Counted from the stretch's first letter, positions 1 through 22,054 are shown. The stretch is 61,015 bases of DNA from Dehalococcoidia bacterium (GCA_046484125.1 JAWOBX010000095.1:1-61015), one strand, 5' to 3'. The notes: generated by a model not told the origin, from the sequence alone. Numbers and translations are program-made.

Positions 1-1
1 T

Positions 2-110
2 CTAAGGAACCTCTTCAGTAAGAGATGACTTCGGTAATCTGGGGGTATTCCCCAGCTTCATAAGTTCCCCATGATCGGGGAATTCAGAGTGTTGATCAGA
101 TGGTCCTCAG
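2..110 (+). repeat. MITE-like dispersed repeat family 1, copy A
   Basis: TAAGGAACCTCTTCAGTAAGAGATGACTTCGG...GTTGATCAGA is near-identical to 271-380 and similar to 51951-52142 (reverse) and 59014-59112. Imperfect terminal inverted repeats CTAAGGAACCTCT / AGATGGTCCTCAG. Confidence 0.85.
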
Positions 111-125
111 TGAATTTTCCCTGAC

Positions 126-185
126 GGTTCTGTACAAATGTTGAAGCAATGCTACTTTCACCCCATTGCTTCACTTGAAAAGCTG
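126..185 (+). repeat. Dispersed repeat family 2, copy A, with 10-bp hairpin TGAAGCAATG/CATTGCTTCA
   Basis: Aligns by eye with 32409-32468 (GGTTCTGTACAAATG...GCAATGCTA.TTTCACC.CATTGCTTCACT.GAAAAG). Confidence 0.8.
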
Positions 186-238
186 ACTACACCGGCGACG
201 TACTCGCAAAGCGCGAGTACGTCGCCGGTGTAGTCAGC
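182..238. repeat. Perfect 26-bp inverted repeat with 5-nt loop
   Basis: GCTGACTACACCGGCGACGTACTCGC-AAAGC-GCGAGTACGTCGCCGGTGTAGTCAGC. Confidence 0.95.
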
Positions 239-270
239 GTCGGATGGTTAGTGGGAACAAGGCTTAGTAA

Positions 271-380
271 CTTAAGGAACCTCTTCAGTAAGAGATGACT
301 TCGGGGGTGTGGAGTTATCTCCCAGCTTTAAAAGTCCCCCGTAATTGGGGGACTTAAGGGGTTGATCAGAGGGTCCCTCA
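271..380 (+). repeat. MITE-like dispersed repeat family 1, copy B
   Basis: Starts CTTAAGGAACCTCTTCAGTAAGAGATGACTTCGG like copy A; internal G/C-run hairpins. Confidence 0.85.
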
Positions 381-386
381 TTAGTT

Positions 387-1583
387 TTACCCTTTCATCA
401 AACCCCTCTCCTCCGCCACGCAGCGTACGCCACCCGCATCCATAGCCGCAATACATCTGTTACAATGATCGCAATCCGACCCGGATATTTCACCGGATTG
501 CAGTCTTTTTACAAAGTCGGCATCCCTCACGGTGGCCCTTCCTATCTCAATGAACTCAAATCCTTCATCCATAACTCTTTCCATATCATAGAGCGAGAGC
601 ACTCCACCAATATAGATTACCGGAATCTTCAATGCCTCTTTAAATCTGCGGGCCCCCTCCAGCAGGAAAGTCGGTTCGAAGGGATATTCCTCAACCATAA
701 AGCGCCCGAATAATATGAGTCCCAGCCTGAGCACCGGATTACTCTGATTCCTGGCCATATCGGCGGAAGGTACATTTCCCCTCATCATGTATAAAGGTGT
801 CCTCGCCGTGAACCCGCAACTCGGTATAACCGCTCCGGCCCCCGAAGCCTCGAAAATCCGCGCAACCTCGACCGCCTCATCTAGTTCCAGTCCGCCTTTA
901 AATCCGTCGCGCTGATTCATTTTGACCATAATGGGGAAATCGGGGCCCACTATCTCTCTTGTTCGCTTTATTACAGACGCCGGAAACCGTGCCCTGTTCT
1001 CCAGCGAGCCCCCGTACCGGTCTTTCCGATGATTTGTCCAGGGTGAAAGGAACTGGCTCAACAGGTAGCCATGGCCGGAATGAATCTCCACGGCATCGAA
1101 CCCCGCTTCCTTCGCCAATCCCGCGGCCCTGGCAAAATCCTCGATTTTACCCTCTATCTGGCCCTCTGTCATCTCTTTGCAGATTGACATGCGAAAAAGG
1201 CAGAACTTGCGCGAGGCCCCGATTGGTCTCGTTCCTATTTCACTGCGGCTGGCGAAAAAACCGCAGTGGCCTAACTGTATTGAGGCTTTAGCACCTTCAT
1301 CATGCACGGCGTCTGTAAGCCGCCTCAGGTCAGTTAAAACCTCTTCCCTCATCCATAGCTCGTGGCCGAAGGCCCTCCCGTCAAATGTCACTGAACAATA
1401 TGCCACTGTAGTCATCGCGACCCCCCCTTCAGCCACCCTCCGGTGATGCTCAATCAGTCCATCCGTTACCATTCCCTCCTGGCAAAGCCCTTCGAAGCAC
1501 CCGGACCTGATTATACGATTCCTCAACCTCAACCCGTCTATTGCCCCCGCGGTAAATACCCGGCTTTTCACCTCAGTACTCAC
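387..1583 (-). CDS. OYE-family NADH:flavin oxidoreductase, short type with C-terminal Cys cluster; candidate 3-oxo-5beta-steroid delta4-dehydrogenase/5beta-reductase
   Basis: LRNRIIRS, EIHSGHGYLLSQFLSP, YGGSLENRARF and CDHCNRC motifs. Start moved to GTG 1583 (AGGAG upstream) from the ORF-track 1739. Confidence 0.85.
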   Translation of the reverse strand: MSTEVKSRVFTAGAIDGLRLRNRIIRSGCFEGLCQEGMVTDGLIEHHRRVAEGGVAMTTVAYCSVTFDGRAFGHELWMREEVLTDLRRLTDAVHDEGAKASIQLGHCGFFASRSEIGTRPIGASRKFCLFRMSICKEMTEGQIEGKIEDFARAAGLAKEAGFDAVEIHSGHGYLLSQFLSPWTNHRKDRYGGSLENRARFPASVIKRTREIVGPDFPIMVKMNQRDGFKGGLELDEAVEVARIFEASGAGAVIPSCGFTARTPLYMMRGNVPSADMARNQSNPVLRLGLILFGRFMVEEYPFEPTFLLEGARRFKEALKIPVIYIGGVLSLYDMERVMDEGFEFIEIGRATVRDADFVKRLQSGEISGSDCDHCNRCIAAMDAGGVRCVAEERGLMKG

Positions 1584-1632
1584 TGGCTTGCTCCTTTTCT
1601 GCAGTTTAGGTTGGCCGCTTAACCGTAACTCT

Positions 1633-1794
1633 TCCGATTGGTTCTTATGGTAGATTTGTTCGATGCGAATTTCAACCCTGTTAACTAATCGTAAGTATAC
1701 TGAAAAAAGCCTCACCTGTAATCCTATAGAATCCCTCACGGAGAATAATATGTCCTAATGGTTCATTTCTAACGATTTATATGAACCAATTGGC
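1633..1794. promoter_or_regulatory. Three copies of a candidate operator GAACCAWWNGG in the divergent promoter region
   Basis: 1633-1645 (rc AGAACCAATCGGA), 1753-1765 (rc TGAACCATTAGGA), 1782-1794 (TGAACCAATTGGC). Confidence 0.5.
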
Positions 1795-1845
1795 ACCATA
1801 ATAGGTGAATAAGCGTAACTTATGCGTCGAAACCCCCTCGCAGGG

Positions 1846-1874
1846 TTGTCTTTTTTGAAATAAATATGTATAAT
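1846..1874 (+). promoter_or_regulatory. Sigma70-type promoter of the corrinoid methyltransferase operon
   Basis: TTGTCT-17 nt-TATAAT, about 60 nt upstream of ATG 1937. Confidence 0.6.
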
Positions 1875-1936
1875 GCAAACGTGTCGGAAGTAAACGAATA
1901 TAATTCATAGCTGATCACAAAACTACAGGGGGCAAG

Positions 1937-2572
1937 ATGGGTGTACTAGAAGATATCTCCAAAGCTGTCGAGGAACTGGAAAAAGAAAAAGCTCTTTCCC
2001 TGGTGCGGCAGGCCATTGACGAAGGGGTTGATCCGCCCAAGATAATTCAGGCTGGTATCGTGCCCGGATTGCAGGGTGTGGGTAAAAAGTTCGAGGCGGA
2101 GGAGTACTTCCTCGCCGAGTTGATGATGGGAGGCAAAGTCTCTCAGGCATGCATCGACCTGGTAACCCCTCATCTCCCGGACACCACGGGGAGCAAAGCC
2201 GGAACAGTGGTAATCGGCGCTGTAGAGGGCGATCTGCACGATATTGGCTACGGGCTCGTTGCCACTCAACTTGAACTCAATGGTTTCGAGGTTCACAAGC
2301 TGGGAGTCAACCTGCCGGCGATGACCTTTATCGATAAAGCGAAGGAGCACAACGCGGATATAATCGGCCTGTCCGCATTTCTGGTAACCACCATTCCCAA
2401 CTGCAATGAGGTCATTAACTACCTCAGAGATATGGGGCTTAAGGATAAATACAAGGTGATAATAGGTGGAACGGAAACCAGCCAGGAAAAAGCGGATGCG
2501 ATGGGCGCTGATGGCTGGGCCCCCAACGCCGTGGAAGCGGTCAAATTGTGCCAGCGACTTATGGGCCGCTAG
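1937..2572 (+). CDS. Corrinoid (B12-binding) methyltransferase cognate protein, MtmC/EmtB/AbeB-like
   Basis: Cap domain (GKKFEAEEYFLAELM) plus the B12 motif EGDLHDIG...IGLSAF...VIIGG. Confidence 0.95.
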   Translation: MGVLEDISKAVEELEKEKALSLVRQAIDEGVDPPKIIQAGIVPGLQGVGKKFEAEEYFLAELMMGGKVSQACIDLVTPHLPDTTGSKAGTVVIGAVEGDLHDIGYGLVATQLELNGFEVHKLGVNLPAMTFIDKAKEHNADIIGLSAFLVTTIPNCNEVINYLRDMGLKDKYKVIIGGTETSQEKADAMGADGWAPNAVEAVKLCQRLMGR

Positions 2573-2605
2573 TTTCCAGATTGTTAGCGAGGAGGAGAGG
2601 ATTAG

Positions 2606-3946
2606 ATGATCCCCATTATCGAGTTCCAGGAACGGGCTTTAAACGGCCCGGTAATGAAGAGTGATGAGTTTGATTTAGAATTCTCTATGAAAATCCGCGA
2701 ACTGGTCAAGAAATACAACATTGAATATAACGAGAATGAACTGGTAGTAGACGATGACACGGCTGACGCGGTATACCAGGCAGCGGTTGAACTTCTGGCC
2801 GAAGTCGGTATCTACCATATGGATACCGAACGGGTAATCAAGCTTACCAGAGAAGAGATCGAAGAGGTTGCGGGGGAATACCGGGGGAACCCCGGCCGTC
2901 ATACGTTCGGCAAAGGCAAGGACCAGGTGACAGTTGAATACCGGGCCAGCACGGATAAGAGGCCGCCCACTTTGTATGCCGGCTCGTGGGGAGTGGCGAA
3001 AGAGGAATGGTACAAACCTTATATAAAATCCTTCGTCCAGGAAGAAGCCATAGAGGCGATGGGAATAACCGCCGGTTTGGCCAATCTGGGTAACGTGAGG
3101 GCAAAGGCCGGAACTCCCAGCGAGGTCATCGTCGGGCTCTGGGAAAACGAGAGCGTAAAAGAGGTGGTCGAGGAGGTGGGAAGACCGGGGATGCATCTTG
3201 GATTGCTGGCCACACTTAGCAGCGCCGGTGGCATCATGACCGTAGTAGGAGCAGGCTTCCGGGACGCGCACAACACCCAGATCGGCGTTCATATCATACC
3301 GGAGATGAAGATAAGCTGGAGCCAGTTCGTTCTCGCCCATTATTGCCAGTTGCGGGGAATTCAGCCATGGCAGAGCTCAATGTCGATGATCGGAGGCCTT
3401 TGCCGTAATGCCGCGGACGCGGCGGTTGGATTGACAGCGAACCTGCTTGGCCAGCTTTCCTACGCTCAAGGCCAGTTGTGCAGCCTGTTCACCAATCATA
3501 TGGACGGAAAATCGGCCACCAAGCCGACACATTGGGCATTCAGCGCGGCCGCCCGTGCTTCTGAGCGAAATATAAAAGTGTGTATCGGCGGATGCGCTGC
3601 CGGCGTCCTCTGCAAGTCGCCGTTCACCCTGATTCAAGCTGTAAATATGGCCAGTCTGTTCACCGCCAGCGGTATGTCCTACTGCTGGATAGCGGGGAAT
3701 ACAGGCATAGAGGCCCGGTACACAGGTGAGGTAATGAACGCCATAGCGGGTATGGAGCGAGAGCAGGCCAATGAGCTGATTAATAACATGATGGAACTGC
3801 AACAAAAGTACGCTCCCGAGGTCAAAGGCAATACCTGTAAATTCCCGGATGTGTATGACCTGGAAACAGTCAAACCACACGGATGGTATGTTGACTACAT
3901 TGAAAAGGCAAAGGAGGAACTTGCAAGCTGCGGAGTTCCCTACTAA
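2606..3946 (+). CDS. MtmB-family substrate:corrinoid methyltransferase, non-pyrrolysine, paralog 1
   Basis: GIYHMDTERVIK, GRPGM, PEMKI, TGIEARY and YDLETVKP match recalled MtmB motifs. No in-frame TAG. Confidence 0.9.
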   Translation: MIPIIEFQERALNGPVMKSDEFDLEFSMKIRELVKKYNIEYNENELVVDDDTADAVYQAAVELLAEVGIYHMDTERVIKLTREEIEEVAGEYRGNPGRHTFGKGKDQVTVEYRASTDKRPPTLYAGSWGVAKEEWYKPYIKSFVQEEAIEAMGITAGLANLGNVRAKAGTPSEVIVGLWENESVKEVVEEVGRPGMHLGLLATLSSAGGIMTVVGAGFRDAHNTQIGVHIIPEMKISWSQFVLAHYCQLRGIQPWQSSMSMIGGLCRNAADAAVGLTANLLGQLSYAQGQLCSLFTNHMDGKSATKPTHWAFSAAARASERNIKVCIGGCAAGVLCKSPFTLIQAVNMASLFTASGMSYCWIAGNTGIEARYTGEVMNAIAGMEREQANELINNMMELQQKYAPEVKGNTCKFPDVYDLETVKPHGWYVDYIEKAKEELASCGVPY

Positions 3947-3977
3947 CGATAATTCAAATGACCAGTTTAATCGAGAG

Positions 3978-4781
3978 ATGCTGATTATCGGAGAATCCCT
4001 CAACGCCACTATTCCATCTGTTCGGCAGGCAGTCATTGAACACGATGAAAACAAGATTGCCTCTCTCGCGCGCACTCAGGCGGAGTGTGGGGCAAATATG
4101 CTTGACGTCAACGCCGCTGTACCAGAGCAGGACGAGGTCGAGAATCTGAGATGGATGGTTAAAACGGTGCAGAGGGCGACCGACCTGCCCCTGGTTCTGG
4201 ACAGCTCAGATCCACGGGCAATCGAGGCGGCACTGGAAATCTACAGGGGGCCACCCCCAATCCTTAACTCCATAACCGGGGAGATGACCGAGGGACATCA
4301 CCACCTCCTCGAACTCGCTGTCATGAACGGCTGCGGATTGGTTGTTATGTGCATGGATGAGACAGGGATTTCCCCCGACGCGGAAGTCAGGTTCTCCATA
4401 GCGGTGAAATTGTTCGAACGGGCCAGAGCCGCCGGACTCAGTCCTGAGAAAGTCTATGTAGACCCCCTCGTTATGGCCATAGGTGCTGATTACACCGCGG
4501 GCGCAACCTCCCTTCATGTCCTGCGCCTCATTCAGGAACGTTTGCCACAGGTGTACACGTTCTGTGGTGCCAGCAATATCAGCTGGGGAATGCCCATGCG
4601 CAGACTACTCAATCGAACCATGATCTCCATGCAGGTTTCACTGGGAATGCACGCTTTTCTCGTTGATGTGCGTGATAGCAAATTGATGTCCACGCTGATT
4701 GCGGCAAAGGCGCTCATCGGTCAGGATGAGTGGGGAATGGAGTACATAAGAGCCTATCGGACCGGGAGACTCAACGCCTGA
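3978..4781 (+). CDS. Methyltetrahydrofolate:corrinoid methyltransferase (pterin-binding, AcsE/AbeC-like)
   Basis: MLIIGESLNA, LDVN, PLVLDSSD, ILNS, VDPLV and GASNISWGMP motifs. Start at ATG 3978. Confidence 0.92.
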   Translation: MLIIGESLNATIPSVRQAVIEHDENKIASLARTQAECGANMLDVNAAVPEQDEVENLRWMVKTVQRATDLPLVLDSSDPRAIEAALEIYRGPPPILNSITGEMTEGHHHLLELAVMNGCGLVVMCMDETGISPDAEVRFSIAVKLFERARAAGLSPEKVYVDPLVMAIGADYTAGATSLHVLRLIQERLPQVYTFCGASNISWGMPMRRLLNRTMISMQVSLGMHAFLVDVRDSKLMSTLIAAKALIGQDEWGMEYIRAYRTGRLNA

Positions 4782-5407
4782 TGAGAACAGGATTAATCGT
4801 TTGCGGAGCACTGGGCCGTGAGGTAAAGAACATAGTGCGCAAGCACAGGTGGAATGCATCCATTCTCGGAGTGCCACCCCTCAATCATATGTATCCGCTC
4901 CGTATAGCTCCCGATGTAGAGAGGCGAATCCTGAAACTTCGGGCTGATTGTGATAACATAGCTGTCGTTTACGGTGAATGCGGCACGAGAGGAACCCTTG
5001 ATGAGGTTCTCAATAGATACGGGGCAAAGCGAATCGACGCACAGAATTGCTATGAAATGTATGCCGGAGAGATGTATCAGGAGTTGCTGGAAGAGGAGAG
5101 AGGAACTTTCTTTCTCACGGATTTCCTGGTCCGCACTTTTCACCGAGCCGTCATCGAAGGGCTGGGGCTGGATCGTTTTCCCGAGTTAAAAACTGACTAT
5201 TTCCATAATTGCAGGAGAATCGTTTACCTGGTTCAGAGAAGAGACCCCGAGCTATTGAGACGCGCGGAATCGATCTCTGAGTATATCGATGTTCCGCTGC
5301 AGGTTTACGATACGGGACTTAAGAACCTTGAGGACCGGCTCACAGACCTTTTTAGCAGGCTGCGCTTGGGTTCAACCGAAAACAGGCAGAGAATCCTCTC
5401 ATTCTGA
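4781..5407 (+). CDS. DUF1638 family protein
   Basis: IVCGALGRE, VVYGECGT, NCYEMY and TFFLTDFL motifs. ATG 4781 overlaps the previous TGA. Confidence 0.8.
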   Translation: MRTGLIVCGALGREVKNIVRKHRWNASILGVPPLNHMYPLRIAPDVERRILKLRADCDNIAVVYGECGTRGTLDEVLNRYGAKRIDAQNCYEMYAGEMYQELLEEERGTFFLTDFLVRTFHRAVIEGLGLDRFPELKTDYFHNCRRIVYLVQRRDPELLRRAESISEYIDVPLQVYDTGLKNLEDRLTDLFSRLRLGSTENRQRILSF

Positions 5408-5533
5408 ATGAGGTGAATAACGCGTGAGACCTCCGCAAACACCCGCACGGTATTTTTCACGGCCAACAGGGAATAAGTGGGAATTGTTATCAGTTGACTT
5501 TTCGATGAACAATCAGTATTAAGGAGTTGGTTA

Positions 5534-7192
5534 ATGGCAGACAAACCTCAGACATGGGATATCGAATGCGATTTCATCGCTGTCGGCTCCGGTATAGGCG
5601 GACTTACGGGCGCCATTATTGCCCATGACATCGGCCTGAAAACAGTGATACTGGAGAAGGCTCCCAAGCTCGGCGGCGTCTCAGCACTCTCAGGAGGTGA
5701 GATCTGGGTTCCCAACAACCACGTAATGAAGCGCCAGGGTATAAAGGATACGCGCGACGAGGCAAAACAGTACCTCGACTTCCTGTCAGGAGGGTTTGCC
5801 GAGCCGGAACTGGCCGAAATATTTCTTGACACAGCGCCGGTAGTTTGCGAGTACATGGAGGAGAAAGCAGGCGTTCGCTGGAAAACAATCCCCGATTTCG
5901 CTGATTATTTCTATCCCCATGCTCAGGGAGCGTTGAGAGAGGGGCGATACCTCGAAACCGAGATATTCAAGGGTTCCGACCTGGGAGAGTGGGAGTCACT
6001 GTCGCGCCTGACCCCTCATATGCCCTGTGGAATTACCGCCGAGGAGATGTTTAACTGGGGTGGCGGCGCATGCATGCTCAAATGGGATTTCGCGTTACTG
6101 GGCGAGAGGATGTCCGAGGGTTATCGCACCTTTGGCCCGGGAATGATGGCCTATTTCATCAAGGCAGCAGTTTTAGATAGACAAATCCCGGCGTATCTTA
6201 ATACCGGTGTAAAAGAGCTGGTGATGGATAACAATCGTGTTGTCGGCGTGCGCGCCGAACAGGACGGAAAGGATATCTGGATCGGTGCCCGTAAGGGTGT
6301 GCTCCTCTGTATGGGAGGGTATGACTGGAATGAAGAACTGGCCAGATATTACGAACAGATGCCGGAGTTGCGTTCCGCCTGTCCGCCCCAAATCGAGGGC
6401 GATCACCTGATATTCGGCTGTGAAATCGGAGCACAGGTAGCTGTTATTCCAGTGGGAACACTGGCGACCATGTTTGGCTACAACGTACCCAGCGAGGAGG
6501 CGGAAGGCAAGCCTCTGTGGCGATTATCCGCGGAAGGTGGTTATCCTCACGCAATCTGGGTTAATAAATACGGCCAGAGGTTCTGCGATGAATCCTTCTA
6601 TCCGCAATACTCACCGACTCCGCACATCTGGGATGGCAACCGGAAAGAGCATACCAACTTTCCGGTATATATGATCTTCGATCAGAACCATCGCGATAAA
6701 TATCCCATCGGCCATTTCGCGCCTGGAACAGAACTCCCCGAGGAAATGGTCAAGAGCGCCCCCACACTGAGGGAACTGGCCGGGATTATGGGAATCGACG
6801 CCGAAGGGCTGGAGGCATCGGTCACGCGCTTCAACGGTTTTTGTAAGGACGGTGTCGATAAGGATTTCGGTAAAGGGCAGTATCCGTGGGCCAACTTCAT
6901 GACCGGAGACCTTACCAATCAGCCGAATCCCAATATGGGGCCACTGGAGAAGCCGCCTTACTATTGCCTCAAGTTAACGATCAACTCCGTCGGCATTGAC
7001 TCCGCCGGCCTGAAAACCAATACCAACGGGGAAGTAATCCACGTACGAGGACGTCCGATAGCCGGCCTTTACGCGGCTGGTAACACGGCGGCAGCGCTGG
7101 ATACCGGCGCCGGGTATCAGAGTGGATTCGCCTGCACTCGTGGGATGGTGTGGTCATATATCGCCGCCAGGCACGCTGCCGGCAGACAGTAA
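5534..7192 (+). CDS. FAD-dependent 3-ketosteroid dehydrogenase family protein; candidate delta4-(5alpha) type
   Basis: VGSGIGG, GGVSALSGGEIWVPNN, RFCDES, GLYAAGN and C-terminal GYQSG. Confidence 0.8.
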   Translation: MADKPQTWDIECDFIAVGSGIGGLTGAIIAHDIGLKTVILEKAPKLGGVSALSGGEIWVPNNHVMKRQGIKDTRDEAKQYLDFLSGGFAEPELAEIFLDTAPVVCEYMEEKAGVRWKTIPDFADYFYPHAQGALREGRYLETEIFKGSDLGEWESLSRLTPHMPCGITAEEMFNWGGGACMLKWDFALLGERMSEGYRTFGPGMMAYFIKAAVLDRQIPAYLNTGVKELVMDNNRVVGVRAEQDGKDIWIGARKGVLLCMGGYDWNEELARYYEQMPELRSACPPQIEGDHLIFGCEIGAQVAVIPVGTLATMFGYNVPSEEAEGKPLWRLSAEGGYPHAIWVNKYGQRFCDESFYPQYSPTPHIWDGNRKEHTNFPVYMIFDQNHRDKYPIGHFAPGTELPEEMVKSAPTLRELAGIMGIDAEGLEASVTRFNGFCKDGVDKDFGKGQYPWANFMTGDLTNQPNPNMGPLEKPPYYCLKLTINSVGIDSAGLKTNTNGEVIHVRGRPIAGLYAAGNTAAALDTGAGYQSGFACTRGMVWSYIAARHAAGRQ

Positions 7193-7264
7193 TAATAAAA
7201 GCAAAGCCGTTGTTACCAGTTTATCAACCGTCATTGAAAATAAATCAGAATTAAGGAGGAATAA

Positions 7265-8911
7265 ATGGCCAATATGCCCGATAAATGGGACCTTGAAACC
7301 GACATTCTGGTTATGGGTACGGGAGGATCCGGTTTGGTTGCCGCTATAGTGGCACACGACCAGGGATCTCGAGTGAGCGTAATCGAAAAGGCCGGCACTG
7401 TGGGAGGCGCAACGGCCGTTTCCGGCGGCTTCCCCTGGATACCCAACAACCACCTGGAAAAGGAACTGGGATTCGATGATTCCAGGGAGGACGCACTTAC
7501 GTATATGAAATTCATCGCCCAGAGACAGGTAGACGACTCTCTTCTCGAGGCGTTTGTCGACAACGGTCCGGAGATGATCAAGTACATCGAGGATAATGCC
7601 GGGCTCCGATTCACTGTATCAGAAATGCCCGATTATCACGATACCAGGCCGGGGGGGAAATCCAGAGGCCGGAGCCTCGGCCCGCCGGCATTCGACTCCA
7701 ATGAGCTCGGCGAGTGGAAGAACCGTTTGCGTCAGGCGCCGGTGGTCATCTTCCCCATGTCCTGGGAAGACTATGAGAAAAGCAACGCAAAAGCGGACCC
7801 CAGGAACCTGGATTATCGCGTGCTAGCAGAGAACATGATGAAGGGCATAGTGGGGATGGGCATGGCCACGATAGGCTATCTTCTTAAGGCCTGCCTCGAC
7901 CGCGGTATTGAGCCCCTTATGGAGACCCCCGGGCGTGAATTGATCCAGGATAATGGGCGTGTCGTCGGTATACGGGCGGAACGAGAGGGCAGGGATTTTT
8001 ACATTCGCGTCGGACAGGGCGTTATTCTCGCCTCCGGTGGTTTCGAGTGGAGCGAAGAGCTGAAGAAGCAGTTCATCCCCAGTCCATGGGTATGCCCGTT
8101 AAGTCCACCAAGCAATGAGGGCGACGGTTTGAGAATGGCTATGGCAATTGGTGCCGATCTCGGCAATATGCACCAGGTCTGGGGAGTGCCCTCGGTCATG
8201 ATCCCGGGAGAGGAATACGAGGGAAAACCCCTCGGTCGAATGACGATGGGTGAGCGGGCGCTTCCTCACGTAATAATGGTAAATCGTAAGGGCAAGCGTT
8301 TCGTGGACGAATCATTCAACTACAGCGACGTGGCTAAAACCTACTGCGATATAGATCCGGTGGAATACGACCACCGCAACCTTCCTTCGTGGTGCGTCTT
8401 CGATCAACAGTTCAAGGATAAGTACATGGTGCTCACCAGCGCGCCTGGCGAGCCCGCTCAGGAATGGATGACTCAGGCTGATACACTGGAAGAGCTGGCC
8501 GAAAAAGCGGGTATCGACGCCGATAACCTCAAGGAGACGGTGAATAAATTCAATGAATATGCCGGACAGGGAGTCGACCCTGAATTCAATCGGGGAAGCA
8601 CTGCCTATGATAGATACATGGGCGATCCGAACCACGGTCCGAATCCAGCTCTTGGCGCCATTGAGAAACCTCCATTCTATGCTATGTCCGTGATAAGAGG
8701 CGCTCTCGGTTCGAAAGGAGGGCCAATGACCAACGCCAGCGGCCAGGTGCTTCATGTTATGGGTGGAGTGGTTGAAGGCCTCTATGCCGCGGGCAATGTT
8801 ATGGCCGCTACCAGCGGACCCGGATATGGTGGGGCCGGAAATACCATCGGGGCGGGGATGACCTGGGGCTATATAGCCGCCAGACACGCCTCCAAACAGG
8901 ATAAGAAATAG
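7265..8911 (+). CDS. kstD: 3-ketosteroid delta1-dehydrogenase-like flavoprotein
   Basis: GGATAVSGGFPWIPNN, MPDY, RFVDESFNY, LGSKGG and GYGGAGNTIG; all three KstD Tyr positions appear retained. Confidence 0.8.
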   Translation: MANMPDKWDLETDILVMGTGGSGLVAAIVAHDQGSRVSVIEKAGTVGGATAVSGGFPWIPNNHLEKELGFDDSREDALTYMKFIAQRQVDDSLLEAFVDNGPEMIKYIEDNAGLRFTVSEMPDYHDTRPGGKSRGRSLGPPAFDSNELGEWKNRLRQAPVVIFPMSWEDYEKSNAKADPRNLDYRVLAENMMKGIVGMGMATIGYLLKACLDRGIEPLMETPGRELIQDNGRVVGIRAEREGRDFYIRVGQGVILASGGFEWSEELKKQFIPSPWVCPLSPPSNEGDGLRMAMAIGADLGNMHQVWGVPSVMIPGEEYEGKPLGRMTMGERALPHVIMVNRKGKRFVDESFNYSDVAKTYCDIDPVEYDHRNLPSWCVFDQQFKDKYMVLTSAPGEPAQEWMTQADTLEELAEKAGIDADNLKETVNKFNEYAGQGVDPEFNRGSTAYDRYMGDPNHGPNPALGAIEKPPFYAMSVIRGALGSKGGPMTNASGQVLHVMGGVVEGLYAAGNVMAATSGPGYGGAGNTIGAGMTWGYIAARHASKQDKK

Positions 8912-8932
8912 AACGACAGAGGAGAACTTAAA

Positions 8933-9385
8933 ATGCCTGAAGTCGAACATATGGAAATAGTCAAAGCTCCCCTCCCTACCTCATGGGAATTCTGCAGGGA
9001 TATGAACAACTGGGTCCAGTTTCTGAAAGGCTATCAGAAGCATGAGGAAAAGAACGAATGGGACTCTGTGTGGTGGATCAAAGGTGATGTTGGCATTCTG
9101 GCCCGCACTGTTTCCTTCGAGGTACACATTGACGAATGGATTGAACAGGAAAGCGTCACCTTTTCCATGAAAGGTATCAGCGAGTCGATGACGGGGAAAG
9201 GCGCGCTGCGAATGGAGGCGGCCGACAACAATACCACCAAATTGACTTTTTACCTGGAGGTCAAAGCGGGCGGACTGATAGGGCCCATGGTTAACGCGGT
9301 ACTGGGACCGGTGCTCAAACCAATAGCTGATGATTTCGCGGCAAAACTCAAGGCCAGACTCGAGGAAATAGCATCACAGTCCTGA
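8933..9385 (+). CDS. SRPBCC/CoxG (START-like) ligand-binding protein
   Basis: 150 aa with WEFCRDMNNW...KGDVG and a C-terminal helix after GGLIGPMVN, typical of CoxG/SRPBCC. Confidence 0.8.
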   Translation: MPEVEHMEIVKAPLPTSWEFCRDMNNWVQFLKGYQKHEEKNEWDSVWWIKGDVGILARTVSFEVHIDEWIEQESVTFSMKGISESMTGKGALRMEAADNNTTKLTFYLEVKAGGLIGPMVNAVLGPVLKPIADDFAAKLKARLEEIASQS

Positions 9386-9489
9386 CCTTCTTACGCGCAT
9401 GAGAAGAGACCAGATGATCACCCGCCTTAAGAGAAAAATGGCGTAGAGGCGCAATCGTTGCCTGCCCACAACTTTCAGGAGATGTCATT

Positions 9490-11553
9490 ATGTCAAGTTT
9501 TGATAAACTGTTCAGCCCAATCCAAATCGGGAACATGGAAATCAAGAACCGGATAGTCATGTCCCCGATGACAACTCTGTTCGCCAATATGAAGGAGCAG
9601 ATAACGGATCTGGCCCTTGACTACTATGTCGCACGAGCCAGAGGAGGCACAGGCCTCATCACTGTGGAAGCCTGTACGATTGATCGCCCACACAACTATC
9701 AGTTCAAATCCCTGGGCCTGTGGGACGATAAGTTCATAGCCAGGCACAAAGAACTGACCGACGCTGTTCACGCTCATGACACGAAACTGATCCCGCAAAT
9801 CACTCATCCGGGCCCGGAGTCGCGAGCCCCTATACTTTTCAAGCAACCCGCAGTCGGCCCCTCTTCGGTTCAGTCCGAAATGACCGATGAGATATGCAAG
9901 GAACTCACTATAGAAGAAATCGAAGAGGTTATCGAAAAATATGGTGACGCGGCCAGACGCGCAAGAGAAGCCGGCTATGATGGAATGCAGCTTCATGCCG
10001 CCCACAGCTATATGCTGGCCGGATCCTTCCTGTCACCGCATCGCAACAAGCGAACAGACAAGTACGGCGGTTCGCTGGAAAACCGGGTCCGGTTCGTCCA
10101 GGAAGTCCTGGCAAACATTAGAGCCAAGGCTGGCGATGATTTCCCGATAGATATTCGGATATCCGGAGAAGAACGCATACCCGATGGGAACGATCTTCAG
10201 GACACACTCCGCATGGTCCCGCTGCTCGTGGAGGCAGGTGTCGATTCATTCCACGTTTCCGGGGGTGCAATCGATAAACTCGTCACCATGATCGAGGCCG
10301 GTCCGGAATATCCTCTCGGTTTCAATGTGTCTGCTGCCGCCGCAATCAAGAAGACAGTGGATGTTCCCGTAATGGTCGTTGGTCGAATTAAAGACCCCTA
10401 CCAGGCTGAGGAAATACTTCAGAAAAACGAAGCTGATATGATCGTTATGGGGCGCGGGTTGCTGGCCGATCCGGAATGGCCCAATAAAGCCAGGGCCGGA
10501 AAGGCGGATGAAATACGCAAATGCATCTCCTGCCTGAATTGCTTCGATTCCCAGGCTATGCTGGAAGGACTCAGTTGCTCGGTTAATGGCGTGCTGGGCT
10601 ATGAGAACGTAGAAGAATACCAGTTGAAACCGGCACCCAAATCAAAGAGCGTGATTATCATCGGTGGAGGCCCGGCCGGAATGGAAGCTGCCCGTGTCGC
10701 TTCTATCAGAGGTCATAAGGTCTCCCTGTACGATAAGCTTCCACGGCTGGGGGGCTCCGCCATCCTGGCGTCGATGGTTCACCCGGATAATGAGGATTTC
10801 ATCAACTTCCTGATTACACAGATGAAGAAACTGGGAGTGACAGTAAAATTAAAGCAGGAAATGACCCCTGAGATGATCACCGCCCTCAAGCCTGATGTGG
10901 TTATAATCGCGGTAGGGCCTTCTCTGGTAACTACGAGGATACCCGGAGATGAGCAGCGTCACGTCCTCAGCGCCCCCGATCTCAAAGCGGTCATGGCCGG
11001 TAATCTCAGTGGCCCGGGAGCGGCAAAACTGCCTGCCTCAATTAAAATGGGATTGCGTCTGGCCCGGCCATTTATGCCACGTCTGATGAAACCATCCACC
11101 ATACGAAGCTTGACCAAAACCTGGATGCCCGTCGGAAAACGAGTAGTTGTCATCGGAGGTGATCTGGCCGGCTGCGAACTGGCGCAGTTCCTGGGCGAAC
11201 ATGGTCGAAAGGTGACTCTGCTGGAAACCGGAGATACAATTGCCCCTGAAGTCGGTCCCAAACGGCGGGACAATCTGCAGGGCTTTCTAAATAGAGCCGG
11301 CGTGACCGTTTTCACTCAGGTGACACCAAAAGAGATCACCCGCAATACCGTTACCTTCGAGTCCGGCGATGGGAACTCTCAGGCCGTTGAAGCGGATAGC
11401 GTCATTGTCGCTGGTGAAGCCGAGTCGAACACGGGCATGTATGAGGCTCTGGAAGGCAAGGTCCCTGAAGTTTACACGATTGGTGATTGTGCCGCAATCG
11501 GACTGATCCGAAAAGCCACGGCAACAGCGATGGGTGTTGCGATCAAGATATAG
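9490..11553 (+). CDS. BaiH-like FMN/FAD/Fe-S NAD(P)H-dependent oxidoreductase (OYE plus FAD domain), copy 1
   Basis: PQITHPGPES, LHAAHSYMLAGSFLSP, RISGEE, CISCLNC...C and GGGPAG motifs. Confidence 0.88.
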   Translation: MSSFDKLFSPIQIGNMEIKNRIVMSPMTTLFANMKEQITDLALDYYVARARGGTGLITVEACTIDRPHNYQFKSLGLWDDKFIARHKELTDAVHAHDTKLIPQITHPGPESRAPILFKQPAVGPSSVQSEMTDEICKELTIEEIEEVIEKYGDAARRAREAGYDGMQLHAAHSYMLAGSFLSPHRNKRTDKYGGSLENRVRFVQEVLANIRAKAGDDFPIDIRISGEERIPDGNDLQDTLRMVPLLVEAGVDSFHVSGGAIDKLVTMIEAGPEYPLGFNVSAAAAIKKTVDVPVMVVGRIKDPYQAEEILQKNEADMIVMGRGLLADPEWPNKARAGKADEIRKCISCLNCFDSQAMLEGLSCSVNGVLGYENVEEYQLKPAPKSKSVIIIGGGPAGMEAARVASIRGHKVSLYDKLPRLGGSAILASMVHPDNEDFINFLITQMKKLGVTVKLKQEMTPEMITALKPDVVIIAVGPSLVTTRIPGDEQRHVLSAPDLKAVMAGNLSGPGAAKLPASIKMGLRLARPFMPRLMKPSTIRSLTKTWMPVGKRVVVIGGDLAGCELAQFLGEHGRKVTLLETGDTIAPEVGPKRRDNLQGFLNRAGVTVFTQVTPKEITRNTVTFESGDGNSQAVEADSVIVAGEAESNTGMYEALEGKVPEVYTIGDCAAIGLIRKATATAMGVAIKI

Positions 11554-11696
11554 AGAGTAACAGGGGCGGGAACCATATGGAAAGTACCTGCTCCCTGTAT
11601 CGCTGGCAATGGAACCGGGCAGAGGCGTATATGCTATCCATGGTATATTAAATAAGCACGGGCTTACGGTAGAACTCTAAACCAGGCAGGTTCTTA

Positions 11697-13652: not shown

Positions 13653-13773
13653 ACGTTTCACCTTTGACCGGCTCCCAGGGGGAACCAGGTGACCTTTGAA
13701 GGAGTACCTGTTTCTGGAGTAACGCCCCATGATAATTGAGCTAAATAAGAGGTCAAAACGCGAGGGGTAAACC

Positions 13774-14013
13774 ATGCAAATATCAATAGAGACGTCAAGT
13801 TGCACCGGTTGCCTGCGGTGCGCTCTGGCATGTTCGTTCTTCACCTCAGGTCATAAGGCCTTTAACCCCTTTCAGTCCAAAATTCAAATCTCACCAGCGA
13901 TAGATGATGAAGGATATGACATCTCGTTCACGCCGGAATGCAACGAATGTGGCCTGTGTGTGAAATATTGCGTGTTTGGTGCGCTGCACGGAAACGGGGG
14001 GCAATATGAGTAA
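13774..14013 (+). CDS. 2x[4Fe-4S] ferredoxin, likely AOR partner
   Basis: CTGCLRCALAC and CNECGLCVKYC. Confidence 0.9.
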   Translation: MQISIETSSCTGCLRCALACSFFTSGHKAFNPFQSKIQISPAIDDEGYDISFTPECNECGLCVKYCVFGALHGNGGQYE

Positions 14014-18719: not shown

Positions 18720-20678
18720 GTGTCACTGACCAGGTTATTCAGTCCTCTCCAGATTGGCTCAATGGAGCTTAAGAACCGATTGGTTATGGCCCCAATGGCC
18801 ACCGGGTGGGCCAATCGAGACGGGTCCATTTCCGATAAACTTTCATCGTATCTTGAGGCACGTGCCCGCGGAGGTGCCGGTTTAATCATCACCGAGGTTG
18901 TCACCGTCGATGGCGAATTCCCATATGTGCCGGCCACAGTCGGCCTCTGGGACGATAATCAGATATCCGCCACCCGAAAACTAACAGACTCCATTCATTC
19001 TCATGGAGCCAGAATTATACCTCAGCTCTCCCATCCCGGGCCGGAATCAATATCACTGCTTGTCGGCGGCAGGCAACCTGTCGGACCTTCACAGATACTG
19101 TGTCACAGTACCAAGGATACATGCCGTGAGCTGACCATCGAGGAAATCGAGCAAATCATCGAGCAATTCGCCGAGGCGGCCCGGAGGGCTCACGAAGGCG
19201 GGTACGATGGGATCGAATTACACGCCGCCCACAGCTACATGTTGCTTGGGTCCTTCATCTCGCCGTTGCGAAACAGGCGGACTGACGCTTACGGTGGCTC
19301 CATTGACGGACGGTTAAAGCTGCCCCTTCAAGTGATCGAGAGAATTCGGACAACAGTCGGCCATGATTTCCCTATTTTCGTAAGGATTTCCGGTGATGAG
19401 CTATATCCCGGCGGTCGAGACATTCGCGAGACACAATACGTCGCCCCCATAATGGCCAGAGCCGGCGTCAACGCCTTTGACATATCTGCCGGGTCATACC
19501 CCCATATGTCGTGGCGTATTATTCCTCCCTGCGGTACTCCGTTCGGCATAAATACATCCTATTCCCGAGCGGTTAAAGAAATTGTGGACATACCCGTGAT
19601 GACGGTAGGCAGAATCAATGATCCGCGCTTCGCGGAGGACATCCTTGCCAGAAACGAGGCCGACCTGATAGGGATGGGAAGGGCTCTCCTGGCGGACCCT
19701 GAACTTCCTCAAAAGTCAATGGAGGGCCGCTTTGATGATATCGCCCCGTGCACCGGTTGCGGAGTAGGATGTTCCAGAGCACAACAGGACGAGCGCAACA
19801 TCACCTGCGTGATCAATCCAGCGGTGGGCAGGGAGCGTAAAACGCAGATCCTCCCCACCCCCACACCCGGGAGAGTACTGGTGGTGGGAGCCGGTCCGGG
19901 CGGGCTGGAAGCAGCACGCGTTGCCGCACTGAGAGGGCATCATGTCATCCTCTGTGAAAAGGAGAGCAAGGTTGGTGGACAGCTCAATCTGGCTACCGTT
20001 CCTCCGATGAAGCAGGAACTGTCGAAGTGGATTCAATACCTTCAAAACCAGATTGAGAAAGCCGGAGTTGATTTAAGATTGCTTACAGAGATCACGGCGG
20101 AGAACATCGAGCAATTCAAGCCGGACGCCGTTATAATCGCAACCGGCGGAGAGCCTTTTATTCCCGAATTCGCGGTTGTTGCAGGCAAGAATCTACCCAC
20201 GGCACATGATGTGCTGGCCGGCAGAATAACCATTCAGTCCGGGCACGTGATCGTGCTGGGTGGAGGGGTTGTGGGGTGTGAAGTCGCCGATTTCCTCGCC
20301 GACAGGGGATACAACCAACTGATCGGGCGAACTGATGTTACCATCATCACCAGTAAAGAAGAGGCGGGACTGAAGCTGGTTCGCGAGATCCGGACCATGA
20401 CGATGCAGCGCCTTTCTGAAAAAGGGGTGAAAATTATCACCCGGGCCAGGGTTACAGGCATAATCGATAACGGTGTCAAGATAGAGAGAAACGGGCGGCA
20501 GGAGATCATCACCGGGGCTGATGACATTATTGTGGCCAGGGGTGTAAAATCGGTTGAAAACCTCAGCGACCGGATTAAAGACAAAATAGCCAGTGTATAT
20601 ATTATAGGGGACTGCGCCAGTCCACGTGAAGCGATGGAGGCAATTGCCGAAGGCAGCAGGATCGGCAGAGAGATATAA
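18720..20678 (+). CDS. BaiH-like OYE/FAD oxidoreductase, copy 3
   Basis: PQLSHPGPES, LHAAHSYMLLGSFISPLRN and CTGCGVGC; closely similar to copy 2. Confidence 0.9.
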   Translation: MSLTRLFSPLQIGSMELKNRLVMAPMATGWANRDGSISDKLSSYLEARARGGAGLIITEVVTVDGEFPYVPATVGLWDDNQISATRKLTDSIHSHGARIIPQLSHPGPESISLLVGGRQPVGPSQILCHSTKDTCRELTIEEIEQIIEQFAEAARRAHEGGYDGIELHAAHSYMLLGSFISPLRNRRTDAYGGSIDGRLKLPLQVIERIRTTVGHDFPIFVRISGDELYPGGRDIRETQYVAPIMARAGVNAFDISAGSYPHMSWRIIPPCGTPFGINTSYSRAVKEIVDIPVMTVGRINDPRFAEDILARNEADLIGMGRALLADPELPQKSMEGRFDDIAPCTGCGVGCSRAQQDERNITCVINPAVGRERKTQILPTPTPGRVLVVGAGPGGLEAARVAALRGHHVILCEKESKVGGQLNLATVPPMKQELSKWIQYLQNQIEKAGVDLRLLTEITAENIEQFKPDAVIIATGGEPFIPEFAVVAGKNLPTAHDVLAGRITIQSGHVIVLGGGVVGCEVADFLADRGYNQLIGRTDVTIITSKEEAGLKLVREIRTMTMQRLSEKGVKIITRARVTGIIDNGVKIERNGRQEIITGADDIIVARGVKSVENLSDRIKDKIASVYIIGDCASPREAMEAIAEGSRIGREI

Positions 20679-20704: not shown

Positions 20705-22054
20705 ATGATTCCCATCATTGATTTCCAGAAGCGTTCGCTGAACGGCCCGGTCATGAAGGCAGATGAATTCGACCTTCATTTTTCGAAGACAGTTCGTGAA
20801 CTGGTAGCCAGGTATGAGATCAAGTACAATCCGGAGGAGCTGATCGTAGACGACAGAACCGCCGATGCCGTCTTCCAGGCTGGCGTGGAACTACTGGCTG
20901 ATGTGGGACTGTATCATATCGGTACGGAACGTGTGGTACAGTTCACAAAAGAAGAGGTGGAGCGGATTGCCCGCGAATATCATGATAATCCACGTAAACA
21001 GAAGTTCGGCCGCGGGAAGGACGAGGTTACTATCGAGTATCGAACAGGATCTGATAAGCGTCCCCCCGTCATGTACGCCGGGTCGGCGGGAGTTGCGGAG
21101 GAAGACTGGTATATACCTATGATCAAATCATTTGCCCAGGAGGAGTCGGTCAAGGCAATGGGCATAACTCCGGGCCTGGCTAAACTGGGTGATATCGAGC
21201 CAAAAGCGGGAACCCTCAGCGAAGTTTATGTATCCCAGTGGGAACAAAAGCAATTGAAAGAAGCTCTCCGCCAGGTGGGGAGGCCTGATATGCACTGTGG
21301 CCTGCTTGCTACAGTCAGCACTGTTGGCGGCACCCTGGCCATGATCGGGCCGGGACTCCGTGAAGCCCATAATACGCAAATTGGCGTCCATATCATTCCG
21401 GAACAGAAGCTCGACTGGGCCAGACTGGTTCTCTCCCAGTACTGTCAGGATCGAGGCATACAGCCGTGGCAAAGTTCCATGTCAATGATTGGAGGGCTTT
21501 GCCGTGATGCGGCGGATACCGCGGTGGGACTGGTGGCGAATCTGCTGGGTCAGTTAGCTTATGCTCAAGGGAACCTTTGCAGCCTTTTCACCAATCATAT
21601 GGACGGAAAATGGGCAACCCGGCCCGCGCTATGGGCGTACAGTGCCGCCGCCCGTGCCTCTGAGAGAAACATCAAGGTCTGTATCGGTGGGGTAGCGATA
21701 AGCGCCATAGAAGCATGGAAAACCAGAGAGCAGATAATGCACGCAACCGCCAACGCGATTGTGAACAGCGCCAGCGGTATGGCCTATTGCTGGATCGCCG
21801 GATTGACCGGCTTTGAGGCGCGTCTGATAGCGGAAGCAATGGAGGTCACCGCCGGAATGACCAGAGAAAAAGTCAACCAGTTATCACAGTCCATCCTCAC
21901 CGAAGTATACGCAAATATGAACACCGAACCGGTTCTTGACACACCGTTTCCTGAATCCTGTGATTTGCAGACATCCTTACCACTACCCGAATATGAAGCC
22001 ACCATACTGAAGGGCAAGGACGAACTGGCACGCCTGGGCGTGCCCTATCATTAA
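20705..22054 (+). CDS. MtmB-family substrate:corrinoid methyltransferase, non-pyrrolysine, paralog 2
   Basis: Collinear with 2606..3946 (MIPII.FQ, AHNTQIGVHIIPE, QPWQSSMSMIGGLCR, SLFTNHMDGK). No in-frame TAG. Confidence 0.9.
   Translation: MIPIIDFQKRSLNGPVMKADEFDLHFSKTVRELVARYEIKYNPEELIVDDRTADAVFQAGVELLADVGLYHIGTERVVQFTKEEVERIAREYHDNPRKQKFGRGKDEVTIEYRTGSDKRPPVMYAGSAGVAEEDWYIPMIKSFAQEESVKAMGITPGLAKLGDIEPKAGTLSEVYVSQWEQKQLKEALRQVGRPDMHCGLLATVSTVGGTLAMIGPGLREAHNTQIGVHIIPEQKLDWARLVLSQYCQDRGIQPWQSSMSMIGGLCRDAADTAVGLVANLLGQLAYAQGNLCSLFTNHMDGKWATRPALWAYSAAARASERNIKVCIGGVAISAIEAWKTREQIMHATANAIVNSASGMAYCWIAGLTGFEARLIAEAMEVTAGMTREKVNQLSQSILTEVYANMNTEPVLDTPFPESCDLQTSLPLPEYEATILKGKDELARLGVPYH

Follow-up and report, generated by a model that had tools for sequence, protein, structure and literature searches.

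A contig assigned to a Dehalococcoidia bacterium (GCA_046484125.1 JAWOBX010000095.1:1-61015; the whole stretch of 61,015 nt is called the window below) raises the question of what a corrinoid-dependent methyltransferase of the MtmB family is doing in front of two flavoproteins that resemble 3-ketosteroid dehydrogenases. An initial annotation had proposed that the genes at 1937-9385 transfer the C19 methyl of steroids and so aromatise ring A independently of O2. The answer we favour, and hold to be probable from the sequence evidence, is that the window carries an AbeABC-type cobalamin-dependent steroid C19 (C10 angular methyl) methyltransferase system together with substrate-preparing enzymes. 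Here and below, published papers are cited for the portions of their text that were available to us.

A seven-gene array around a corrinoid methyltransferase

Open reading frame (ORF) calling and Pfam searches placed seven tightly packed co-directional genes on the + strand of 1937-9385, with intergenic gaps of 21-126 nt; the corrinoid protein (CoP) gene, 1937-2572, ends 33 nt before the start of the methyltransferase gene MT1a. All genes named in the initial annotation were recovered at its coordinates on that strand, and what it had called a START-fold protein matches CoxG and Polyketide_cyc2, families of the SRPBCC (START-like) superfamily. The array and its upstream signal are as follows (Pyl, pyrrolysine; THF, tetrahydrofolate).

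1846..1874, + strand, promoter-like site TTGTCT-17-TATAAT, a consensus match only, 63 nt upstream of the CoP start
1937..2572, + strand, CoP, AbeB/EmtB-like corrinoid protein, 211 aa (Pfam B12-binding_2 and B12-binding)
2606..3946, + strand, MT1a, Pyl-free MtmB-family methyltransferase of the AbeA/EmtA clade, 446 aa (PF05369)
3978..4781 (ORF opens at 3849), + strand, MT2, AbeC-like methyl-THF:corrinoid methyltransferase (Pterin_bind)
4781..5407 (ORF opens at 4730), + strand, DUF1638 protein (PF07796)
5534..7192, + strand, KstD/AcmB-like FAD flavoprotein 1, 552 aa (FAD_binding_2)
7265..8911, + strand, KstD/AcmB-like FAD flavoprotein 2, 548 aa (FAD_binding_2)
8933..9385, + strand, small SRPBCC (CoxG/START-like) protein (PF06240, PF10604)

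Translation of MT2 more likely starts at ATG 3978 (267 aa), since the family matches begin at residue 44 of the ORF, and the start of DUF1638 is most likely ATG 4781, with a one-base overlap with the MT2 stop. A terminator-like hairpin (1831-1847) precedes the promoter-like site, and the promoter/terminator scan found no terminator-like sites on the + strand of 1847-14000; the counts of promoter-like and terminator-like sites in the region were not above those of shuffles, such that the position of the one site alone is suggestive. The gene order CoP-MT1-MT2-DUF1638-two KstD-SRPBCC-OYE is repeated in five orthologous Dehalococcoidia loci (L001, L003, L004, L006 and L007), and a 9-kb contig (L002) keeps the same order minus SRPBCC. 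Because the order recurs across orthologous loci, the array is not a chance juxtaposition.

Placement of MT1 in the AbeA-EmtA clade

MT1a belongs to PF05369 (E 1.9e-50), and its frame is open under translation table 11, without an in-frame stop. It aligned with the solved MtmB 1L2Q at E 3e-31 and 111.8 bits (residues 6-444 against 11-456), and the pyrrolysine position of MtmB falls in a one-residue gap between MT1a residues 198 and 199. Given the open frame and this gap, MT1a is Pyl-free, as had been proposed, and the gap further implies that the old MtmB active site was remodelled in MT1a. At E 1e-10 or better, no NCBIfam model matched the protein.

In Phosphitispora sp. TUW77, AbeA is the MT1 of ~50 kDa, AbeB the CoP of ~23 kDa and AbeC the MT2 of ~28 kDa (PMC11912376, PNAS 2025), and the same paper groups AbeA with EmtA in a single lineage beside MtmB. 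By pairwise BLAST, MT1a is 45-48% identical to the AbeA paralogs and MT1b, a second methyltransferase further along the window, 48-49%; CoP is 61-62% identical to AbeB of TUW77 over 208 aa, and MT2 is 45% identical to AbeC. All these matches of the methyltransferase components to their Abe counterparts span the full length. EmtA was identified by its locus tag, B9N43_10325, given as emtA in the Methods of bioRxiv 10.1101/714501 (P0351 in our set, 'hypothetical protein B9N43_10325 [Denitratisoma sp. DHT3]'). It is 48% identical to MT1a, 51% to MT1b and 47-52% to the five MT1 paralogs of the genome, and only 39-41% to the AbeA paralogs. Judged by these identities, the MT1s of the window are nearer to each characterised enzyme than AbeA and EmtA are to each other. 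EmtA was not among the best 120 homologs of AbeA, and it was listed among the homologs of P0123 at 40% identity. P0123 and P0126, both ~40% identical to AbeA, were tried as stand-ins for EmtA and rejected, as both fall outside the clade, in a group of the Actinobacteria/Anaerolineales type.

Searched exhaustively and without a profile, 1.84 billion representatives yielded 633 MtmB-family proteins at E<=0.001, 79 of them at <=1e-30. A FastTree phylogeny of 190 rows, made of 69 MT1-like ORFs (from loci and genome) and the 121 of 150 representatives with at least 430 aa (29 shorter ones were left out), joined the AbeA rows and all Dehalococcoidia rows in a 72-row clade (support 100, branch 0.33). 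We then computed a quick IQ-TREE phylogeny (LG+C20+F+G4 PMSF) on 78 rows hand-picked from the FastTree set, plus EmtA and eight named or near proteins, in which a 54-row clade (SH-aLRT 100, branch 0.34) holds AbeA, EmtA and all five MT1 paralogs of the genome. Its two parts are an AbeA subclade of 14 rows and a subclade of 40 rows; inside the latter, a 37-row clade (99) comprises, among others, the 10-row EmtA group (100) and a 17-row Dehalococcoidia group (93) that contains the five paralogs. A long, fully supported branch parts the MT1 clade from more than 100 other MtmB-family representatives. The best tree uniting the AbeA and EmtA groups without the rest was rejected by an approximately unbiased (AU) test (delta lnL 74.9, p 5.8e-5), the tested group having been chosen after the tree was inspected. 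Both the trees and the AU test place MT1 inside the AbeA-EmtA clade and not among amine or O-demethylases, in keeping with the kinship initially suggested.

The same relation was seen in single residues. We collected 22 signature columns that are identical in five AbeA and four EmtA-type rows and present in at most 2 of 20 outgroup rows; the five MT1 paralogs keep 19 (MT1a), 20 (MT1b), 19, 17 and 16 of them, and Trp135, Gly153, Gly157, Trp179, Ser205 and Tyr359 are conserved across all five.

The corrinoid protein, MT2 and DUF1638

CoP carries the B12-binding_2 (2.5e-16) and B12-binding (2.8e-22) domains and a D-L-H-D-I-G motif of the DxHxxG type. It is the only AbeB-like CoP of the genome, the three other CoP homologs being 35-42% identical. 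MT2 matches Pterin_bind (E 2.4e-20) and passes the NCBIfam model PRK07535 for methyl-THF:corrinoid/Fe-S protein methyltransferases with 283.8 bits against a cut-off of 259. DUF1638 (PF07796, E 7.6e-24) is present as a single copy in the genome. In Phaeobacter, the split B12-dependent methionine synthase genetically needs DUF1638 and a RamA-like protein, whose presence and absence DUF1638 tracks (PMC5764234), and RamA and DUF1638 are treated as a cobalamin recharging pair (PMC12478193). By analogy with this genetic link, DUF1638 of the window is a probable accessory factor for corrinoid (re)activation. RACo_C_ter matches number three in the genome and none in the window. Two of the three (G000:C114:2363-3154 and G000:C75:25001-25750) have an in-frame TGA, for which selenocysteine, a frameshift or two genes are possible.

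The flavoproteins and the SRPBCC protein

Among solved structures, AcmB of Sterolibacterium denitrificans (7P18) comes closest to both flavoproteins, at E 6e-70 for flavoprotein 1 and 1.3e-96 for flavoprotein 2, followed in the second case by KstD1 (4C3X, 2.3e-74). For both, AcmB and KstD1 rank well above 3-ketosteroid delta-4-(5-alpha)-dehydrogenase, fumarate reductases and urocanate reductase. The residues Tyr118, Tyr363 and Tyr536 of AcmB, for which catalytic roles are described (PMC9736390), each align to a Tyr in both flavoproteins, as counted along the alignments. The two KstD-family flavoproteins initially named are thus borne out by the closest structures and the three catalytic Tyr kept. 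We class them as KstD-family enzymes and go no further, because their scores lie under the NCBIfam equivalog cut-off; from their sequences, they are likely to be specific for steroids. As the copies are only 38% identical to each other, one of them may differ in regiospecificity or substrate. The SRPBCC protein (PF06240, CoxG, 4.5e-8; PF10604, Polyketide_cyc2, 4.6e-7) is possibly a lipid or steroid binder, judging from its family.

Host genome and distribution

The host genome (G000) has a size of 2.68 Mb, spread over 139 contigs; its completeness is 93.7% and its contamination 3.9%. A Dehalococcoidia-like host had been guessed, and a genome of the same genus is indeed that of a Dehalococcoidia bacterium. 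G000 holds five MT1 paralogs and one copy each of the AbeB-like CoP, the AbeC-like MT2 and DUF1638, all three in the window; it also holds five KstD-like genes, three of them within 4 kb of an MT1, and ten OYE-type genes. A search for Wood-Ljungdahl genes, suggested earlier as a check, yielded markers above the Pfam cut-offs for CdhC/ACS, two Prismane/CODH-type proteins, FTHFS and three MTHFR; this evidence is at the marker level, with FolD, formate dehydrogenase and CoFeSP outside the search. The xanthine-oxidase-type Mo enzyme PF02738, which we take to be the family of AtcABC, the entry enzyme of anaerobic androgen-core degradation, was not found in this 93.7% complete genome.

The four MT1 paralogs besides MT1a (MT1b and those on contigs C111, C122 and C71, loci L064-L066) are 57-65% identical to MT1a and have no CoP or MT2 of their own. 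On C111, the gene lies between HIBADH-like and KstD-like genes, with a glycyl-radical enzyme nearby. The C122 paralog adjoins an SDR, MaoC, a family III CoA transferase and a Mo-bisPGD enzyme. On C71, ChsH2-type OB-fold and thiolase-like proteins are encoded on one side and four HGD-D genes of the 2-hydroxyacyl-CoA dehydratase/benzoyl-CoA-reductase type on the other.

Of 19 other genomes from the same family, 8, in three genera, had clade-level matches; 21 genomes from three further families of its order had none. When the class was sampled evenly for another 300 genomes, matches of at least 57% identity occurred only in that family (3 of 7), and four other genomes had only 32-35%. As far as the genomes searched go, the system is restricted to a single Dehalococcoidia family.

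Contigs from three metatranscriptomic libraries (two studies) matched positions 1-20000 of the window at >=99% in 25 of 28, 22 of 23 and 12 of 16 pieces, and single RNA-library contigs span the CoP/MT1 (2448-2698) and MT1/MT2 (3649-4070) junctions. The RNA-library runs are labelled salt lake metagenome, and a DNA run labelled freshwater sediment metagenome also contains the stretch; runs with small word shares (X5, X7-X15) do not enter these habitat labels. Positions 1-1334, with the upstream gene on the - strand, have no cover in the RNA-library runs X2 and X3 and are covered by the DNA run; the gap carries no weight.

Gene context of related loci

We compared the surroundings of MT1-clade genes in 56 loci (L001-L056) by tblastn at E<=1e-15 over at least half of the query length; L057 and L058, N-terminal fragments, were left out. 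KstD-like genes occur in 26 of the 56 loci, from Chloroflexota, Thermodesulfobacteriota, Pseudomonadota, Fibrobacterota and others. MT2 was found in 12, namely the six orthologous Dehalococcoidia loci, L023, L028, L029 and three TUW77 loci, DUF1638 only in the six orthologous Dehalococcoidia loci, and SRPBCC in 10. The EmtA-group loci have an adjacent same-type corrinoid protein in 7 of 10 cases and a KstD-like gene in 1 of 10; none of the ten, six of which are at least 19 kb long, has MT2.

The scan of species genomes with N-terminal peptide patterns gave 58 loci, four of them from TUW77 and none from Denitratisoma or Steroidobacter. The TUW77 loci carry OYE/Pyr_redox_2 enzymes, RACo, SDRs, ETF and a CCG protein, and a FAD_binding_2 protein stands beside a further abeA-like gene. 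Six MtmB-family genes were found in TUW77, five of them in L041, L042, L045 and L047 and the sixth being P0281 (58% identical); four abeA genes are named in PMC11912376. L041 holds two MT1 genes, sigma-54 activators and a FAD_binding_2 gene, which may be the 3-oxosteroid 1-dehydrogenase cited in that paper.

Some loci stand apart. L017, 15.7 kb from a Neptuniibacter sp. metagenome-assembled genome (MAG), has an MT1 whose sister is a Dehalococcoidia protein (support 100), two KstD-like genes, four SDRs and a CoP 85% identical to that of the window; from its sequence it looks like a Dehalococcoidia-type contig misbinned into a gammaproteobacterial MAG, or a recent transfer. L036, from a Candidatus Binatia MAG, joins an EmtA-group MT1 to two corrinoid proteins, RACo and a pair of remote MtmB-family genes (28-30% identity with MT1a), so distinct MtmB-family lineages coexist there side by side. 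Four proteins of Chloroflexota bin.164 (L011, L026) are 43-50% identical to the AbeA paralogs, against the ~66% identity between AbeA and a bin164 protein given in PMC11912376; the protein of the paper may be another one, or the figure may be a similarity.

Proposed reaction and its alternatives

In the scheme that we propose, the SDRs and the two KstD/AcmB-like flavoproteins would oxidise a 3-hydroxy or 3-keto steroid to the 1,4-dien-3-one, and MT1 (2606-3946, with four paralogs elsewhere) would move the C19 methyl from C10 to the Co(I) form of CoP, leaving a phenolic 19-nor A ring. MT2 (3978-4781) would hand the methyl to tetrahydrofolate, and methyl-THF would enter the Wood-Ljungdahl pathway as a source of carbon and electrons, by oxidation or assimilation. 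DUF1638 and RACo-type activases encoded elsewhere would keep the corrinoid reduced, and the neighbouring BaiCD-like enone reductases may use more steroid as electron sink, as in Phosphitispora TUW77. We infer that the substrate would be a steroid (androgen, sterol-derived or bile-acid dienone), that the reaction would run in the demethylating direction, and that DUF1638, the SRPBCC protein and the reductases would play the parts just given. The range of candidate steroids is wide by analogy, since AcmB is a sterol enzyme, the OYEs resemble BaiCD and there are five MT1 variants. The early argument that KstD makes the dienone on which the methyltransferase acts agrees with the published model, in which a 3-oxosteroid 1-dehydrogenase forms 1-dehydrotestosterone and the methyl passes via AbeA, AbeB and AbeC to THF and the Wood-Ljungdahl pathway (PMC11912376).

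A number of observations weigh against this assignment. The function of the Dehalococcoidia group is assigned from genes alone, and AbeABC itself was assigned via omics and physiology, not with purified enzyme (PMC11912376). The NCBIfam model for KstD (PRK12844) ranks first for both flavoproteins with 374.9 (flavoprotein 1) and 487.5 bits (flavoprotein 2), below its cut-off of 789; ChcC1, a model for a KstD-family enzyme acting on a monocyclic ketone (4-oxocyclohexanecarboxylate 2-dehydrogenase), scores 291.4 and 445.5 bits, the latter also under its own cut-off, and comes close in flavoprotein 2. Identity between the flavoproteins and the FAD_binding_2 protein next to abeA in TUW77 is only 25-28%, and tblastn of the locus found no RACo gene in the operon. 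The SDRs, CoA transferase, acyl-CoA dehydrogenase, Mo-bisPGD enzymes, aldehyde:ferredoxin oxidoreductases and FAD_binding_4 protein downstream received generic NCBIfam names only, so the downstream island gives no steroid-specific evidence. The loci counts overstate independence, with overlaps on one contig (L007/L015, L045/L047) and several loci per genome, and the RNA-library contigs, which give no strand or level and may include DNA carry-over, are therefore a hint of transcription and not proof. As to direction, MT1 is phylogenetically closer to the methylating enzyme EmtA than to AbeA, and its phylogeny cannot set the direction, because this nearness is joined to the reversibility of EmtAB in extracts (PMC11912376).

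The last point leads to the alternative that the system runs as Emt does, phenolic A-ring steroids (estrogens or 19-nor phenols) being methylated at C10 from methyl-THF via MT2 and CoP, with the KstD-like enzymes working reductively or processing the dienone product for catabolism. The initial annotation had kept the reverse reaction as an option, and we rate it as quite unlikely. The closeness of MT1 to EmtA (47-52% against 46-49% to AbeA, in the same 37-row clade) and the reverse hydrogenation catalysed by AcmB-type KstDs (PMC9736390) would suit it as well as the reversibility just cited; yet the EmtA-group loci have no MT2 (0 of 10) and the EmtA hosts are described as having neither MT2 nor Wood-Ljungdahl genes (PMC11912376), whereas the operon of the window has MT2 and the genome has Wood-Ljungdahl markers. 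Methylation is also called thermodynamically challenging in the same paper. With no PF02738 found in the 93.7% complete genome, an androgen product would have no evident use. Three observations thus favour the demethylating direction: MT2 inside the operon, the Wood-Ljungdahl pathway, and no sign of this androgen-core entry family.

Another alternative, to which we give a similarly small chance, keeps the chemistry and changes the substrate: a quaternary methyl would be removed from cross-conjugated cyclohexadienones of a non-steroid kind, e.g. terpenoid or alicyclic ketones, the KstD-family proteins acting as ChcC1/ChcC2-type desaturases. That both experimentally tied members bracketing the MT1s of the window act on steroids speaks against it, as do AcmB, a steroid/sterol enzyme, as best solved relative of both flavoproteins and BaiCD as best OYE model. 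Flavoprotein 2 fits this alternative nearly as well, with 445.5 bits to ChcC1 and 487.5 to KstD, both under cut-offs; so do the generic downstream genes and the five divergent MT1 paralogs (57-65% identical) in their varied contexts (glycyl-radical enzyme, HGD-D, CoA transferase and MaoC), although one of the paralogs adjoins the ChsH2-type OB-fold and thiolase-like proteins. This pairing is known from steroid side-chain cleavage.

Ordinary utilisation of methylamine (or another N-methyl compound), the function implied by the Pfam MtmB family, by the database name monomethylamine:corrinoid methyltransferase and by matches of CoP to the NCBIfam methylamine and glycine-betaine corrinoid models, all below their cut-offs, is very improbable, given that MT1a has no pyrrolysine codon and a gap at the Pyl position, matches the solved MtmB weakly (111.8 bits) and no NCBIfam model at E 1e-10 or better, is set off by a long branch with full support from over 100 other MtmB-family representatives, and shares that database name with AbeA. 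Sources do label these proteins, AbeA included, in this way, as had been foreseen for automated annotation.

Comparison with known systems

The steroid-demethylating reading can be set beside five known systems. With AbeABC, the window shares a Pyl-free MtmB-family MT1, a corrinoid protein and a pterin-binding MT2 (45-49%, 61-62% and 45% identity), OYE/Pyr_redox_2 enzymes, SDRs, a CCG protein and a FAD_binding_2 dehydrogenase nearby, and an anaerobic host with the Wood-Ljungdahl pathway, seen here as markers. It differs in that the host belongs to another phylum, Chloroflexota (Dehalococcoidia); the order is CoP-MT1-MT2, against MT2-CoP-MT1 in TUW77; the operon includes DUF1638, two AcmB-like KstDs and SRPBCC, with no RACo in the locus; five MT1 in the genome face one dedicated CoP and MT2; and its MT1 lies in the sister subclade to AbeA, the one containing EmtA.

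With EmtABCD of Denitratisoma sp. DHT3, the likeness is in EmtA (47-52% identical to the MT1s, same 37-row clade, support 99); the comparison covers EmtA alone, EmtC (hypothetical) and EmtD (flavodoxin-like) being outside it. The Emt hosts, unlike ours, are denitrifying Pseudomonadota described as without MT2 or the Wood-Ljungdahl pathway (PMC11912376), and the physiological direction there is estrogen methylation. MtmBC of Methanosarcina (1L2Q/1NTH) has the same Pfam family, aligns end to end and has a cognate corrinoid protein, whereas MT1a is without pyrrolysine and its partner MT2 is a THF enzyme, not a CoM enzyme. AcmB and KstD (7P18, 4C3X) are the best solved relatives of the flavoproteins, with Tyr118, Tyr363 and Tyr536 kept, but the window proteins are under the NCBIfam equivalog cut-offs. 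BaiCD and BaiH have the OYE plus Pyr_redox_2 architecture in common with enzymes of the window, whose copies score below the 825-bit cut-off.

Wider implications

The initial claim of a new lineage holds in part. The Dehalococcoidia operon itself stands, and a search of the literature on AbeABC, EmtA and estrogenesis found no paper describing it; however, the AbeABC paper already names a protein of a Chloroflexota MAG, bin164, as the closest relative of AbeA, and takes marine-sediment homologs to suggest a widespread process (PMC11912376). New here are the complete operon with KstDs, the set-up of a single CoP and five MT1s, the placement between the two characterised enzymes, the confinement to one family and the matches in RNA libraries. 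The chemistry of angular-methyl removal probably extends beyond a single cultured bacterium. To our knowledge, O2-independent estrogen formation is known from one cultured bacterium, growing only on testosterone. If our reading is true, the reaction may belong to the everyday carbon cycle of anoxic settings, Dehalococcoidia being an abundant sediment class; in sediments and saline lakes, steroid hormones could arise or be changed with no animal involved, and metagenome genes of Chloroflexota and Desulfobacterota annotated as methylamine utilisation would be misread.

In the tree, MT2-bearing (demethylating) operons sit on both sides of the EmtA group. As part of the broader conjecture set out below, this would suggest that demethylation coupled to the Wood-Ljungdahl pathway is older and that estrogen methylation by denitrifiers is derived.

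Monoaromatic steroids with an aromatic A or B ring are ascribed to low-temperature microbial reactions in early diagenesis (PMC3783881), and an Abe-type system of sediment Dehalococcoidia is a candidate agent for those aromatic in ring A. A broader conjecture, with a modest chance of being right as a whole, is that one sediment Dehalococcoidia family lives partly off steroid angular methyls in general, those of 1,4-dien-3-ones derived from C27-C29 sterols and bile acids included, that its five MT1s of differing specificity share one CoP and one MT2, and that its members would be agents of early-diagenetic A-ring aromatisation. We know of no enzyme for the microbially mediated form of this aromatisation. 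Many sedimentary ring-A aromatic steroids keep a migrated methyl, which Abe-type chemistry would not explain. The operon (CoP, MT1, MT2, DUF1638 and two KstDs) makes a compact, testable gene set, and the five natural MT1 variants could be used for mapping substrate specificity.

The downstream island and other features

The window has a GC content of 48-56% (2-kb windows) and ~40 kb of co-directional genes on the + strand. Downstream of the array, the + strand encodes four OYE plus Pyr_redox_2 Fe-S flavoenzymes, two aldehyde:ferredoxin oxidoreductases, a FAD_binding_4 protein and two CCG-domain proteins, and, further on, MT1b, four SDRs, a family III CoA transferase, an acyl-CoA dehydrogenase and two Mo-bisPGD enzymes. 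The features closest to the subject are the following.

387-1739, - strand, upstream of the array, truncated OYE with the OYE domain only (Pfam)
9490-11553 and 11697-13652, + strand, two OYE plus Pyr_redox_2 Fe-S flavoenzymes, BaiCD-like candidate steroid enone reductases (Pfam)
18720..20678, + strand, third BaiCD-like OYE flavoenzyme, directly upstream of MT1b
20705..22054, + strand, MT1b, methyltransferase of the AbeA/EmtA clade, 449 aa (PF05369, E 1.5e-46)
22078-22881 and 22921-23748, + strand, two SDR dehydrogenases, candidate hydroxysteroid dehydrogenases (Pfam)

MT1b is 61% identical to MT1a. BaiCD is the best NCBIfam model for three OYE copies, at 492.3, 556.5 and 525.5 bits, and its cut-off of 825 is not reached; since the mycofactocin-OYE and bilirubin-reductase models score nearly as high, only the broad OYE family is established. 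The pair at 9490-13652 shows 33-36% identity with the OYE enzymes that neighbour abeABC in TUW77, and the SDRs at 22078-23748 are 36-37% identical to SDRs of the TUW77 abe locus, with generic NCBIfam matches.

The two aldehyde:ferredoxin oxidoreductases lie at 13976-15886 and 35310-37238, and the Mo-bisPGD enzymes, both of cytoplasmic type, at 27482-29701 and 33105-35291, one of them being DmsA-like (669 bits, below the cut-off). A 4Fe-4S protein (31761-32408) is encoded inside the same co-directional island. From 41.9 kb, coding switches to the - strand and the genes are of the housekeeping kind (integrase/Xer-like, topoisomerase). A tyrosine recombinase (Phage_integrase, its N-terminal domain SAM-like) closes the island and topoisomerase I comes next (41932-45002, - strand); the sign of the GC skew flips near 42 kb.

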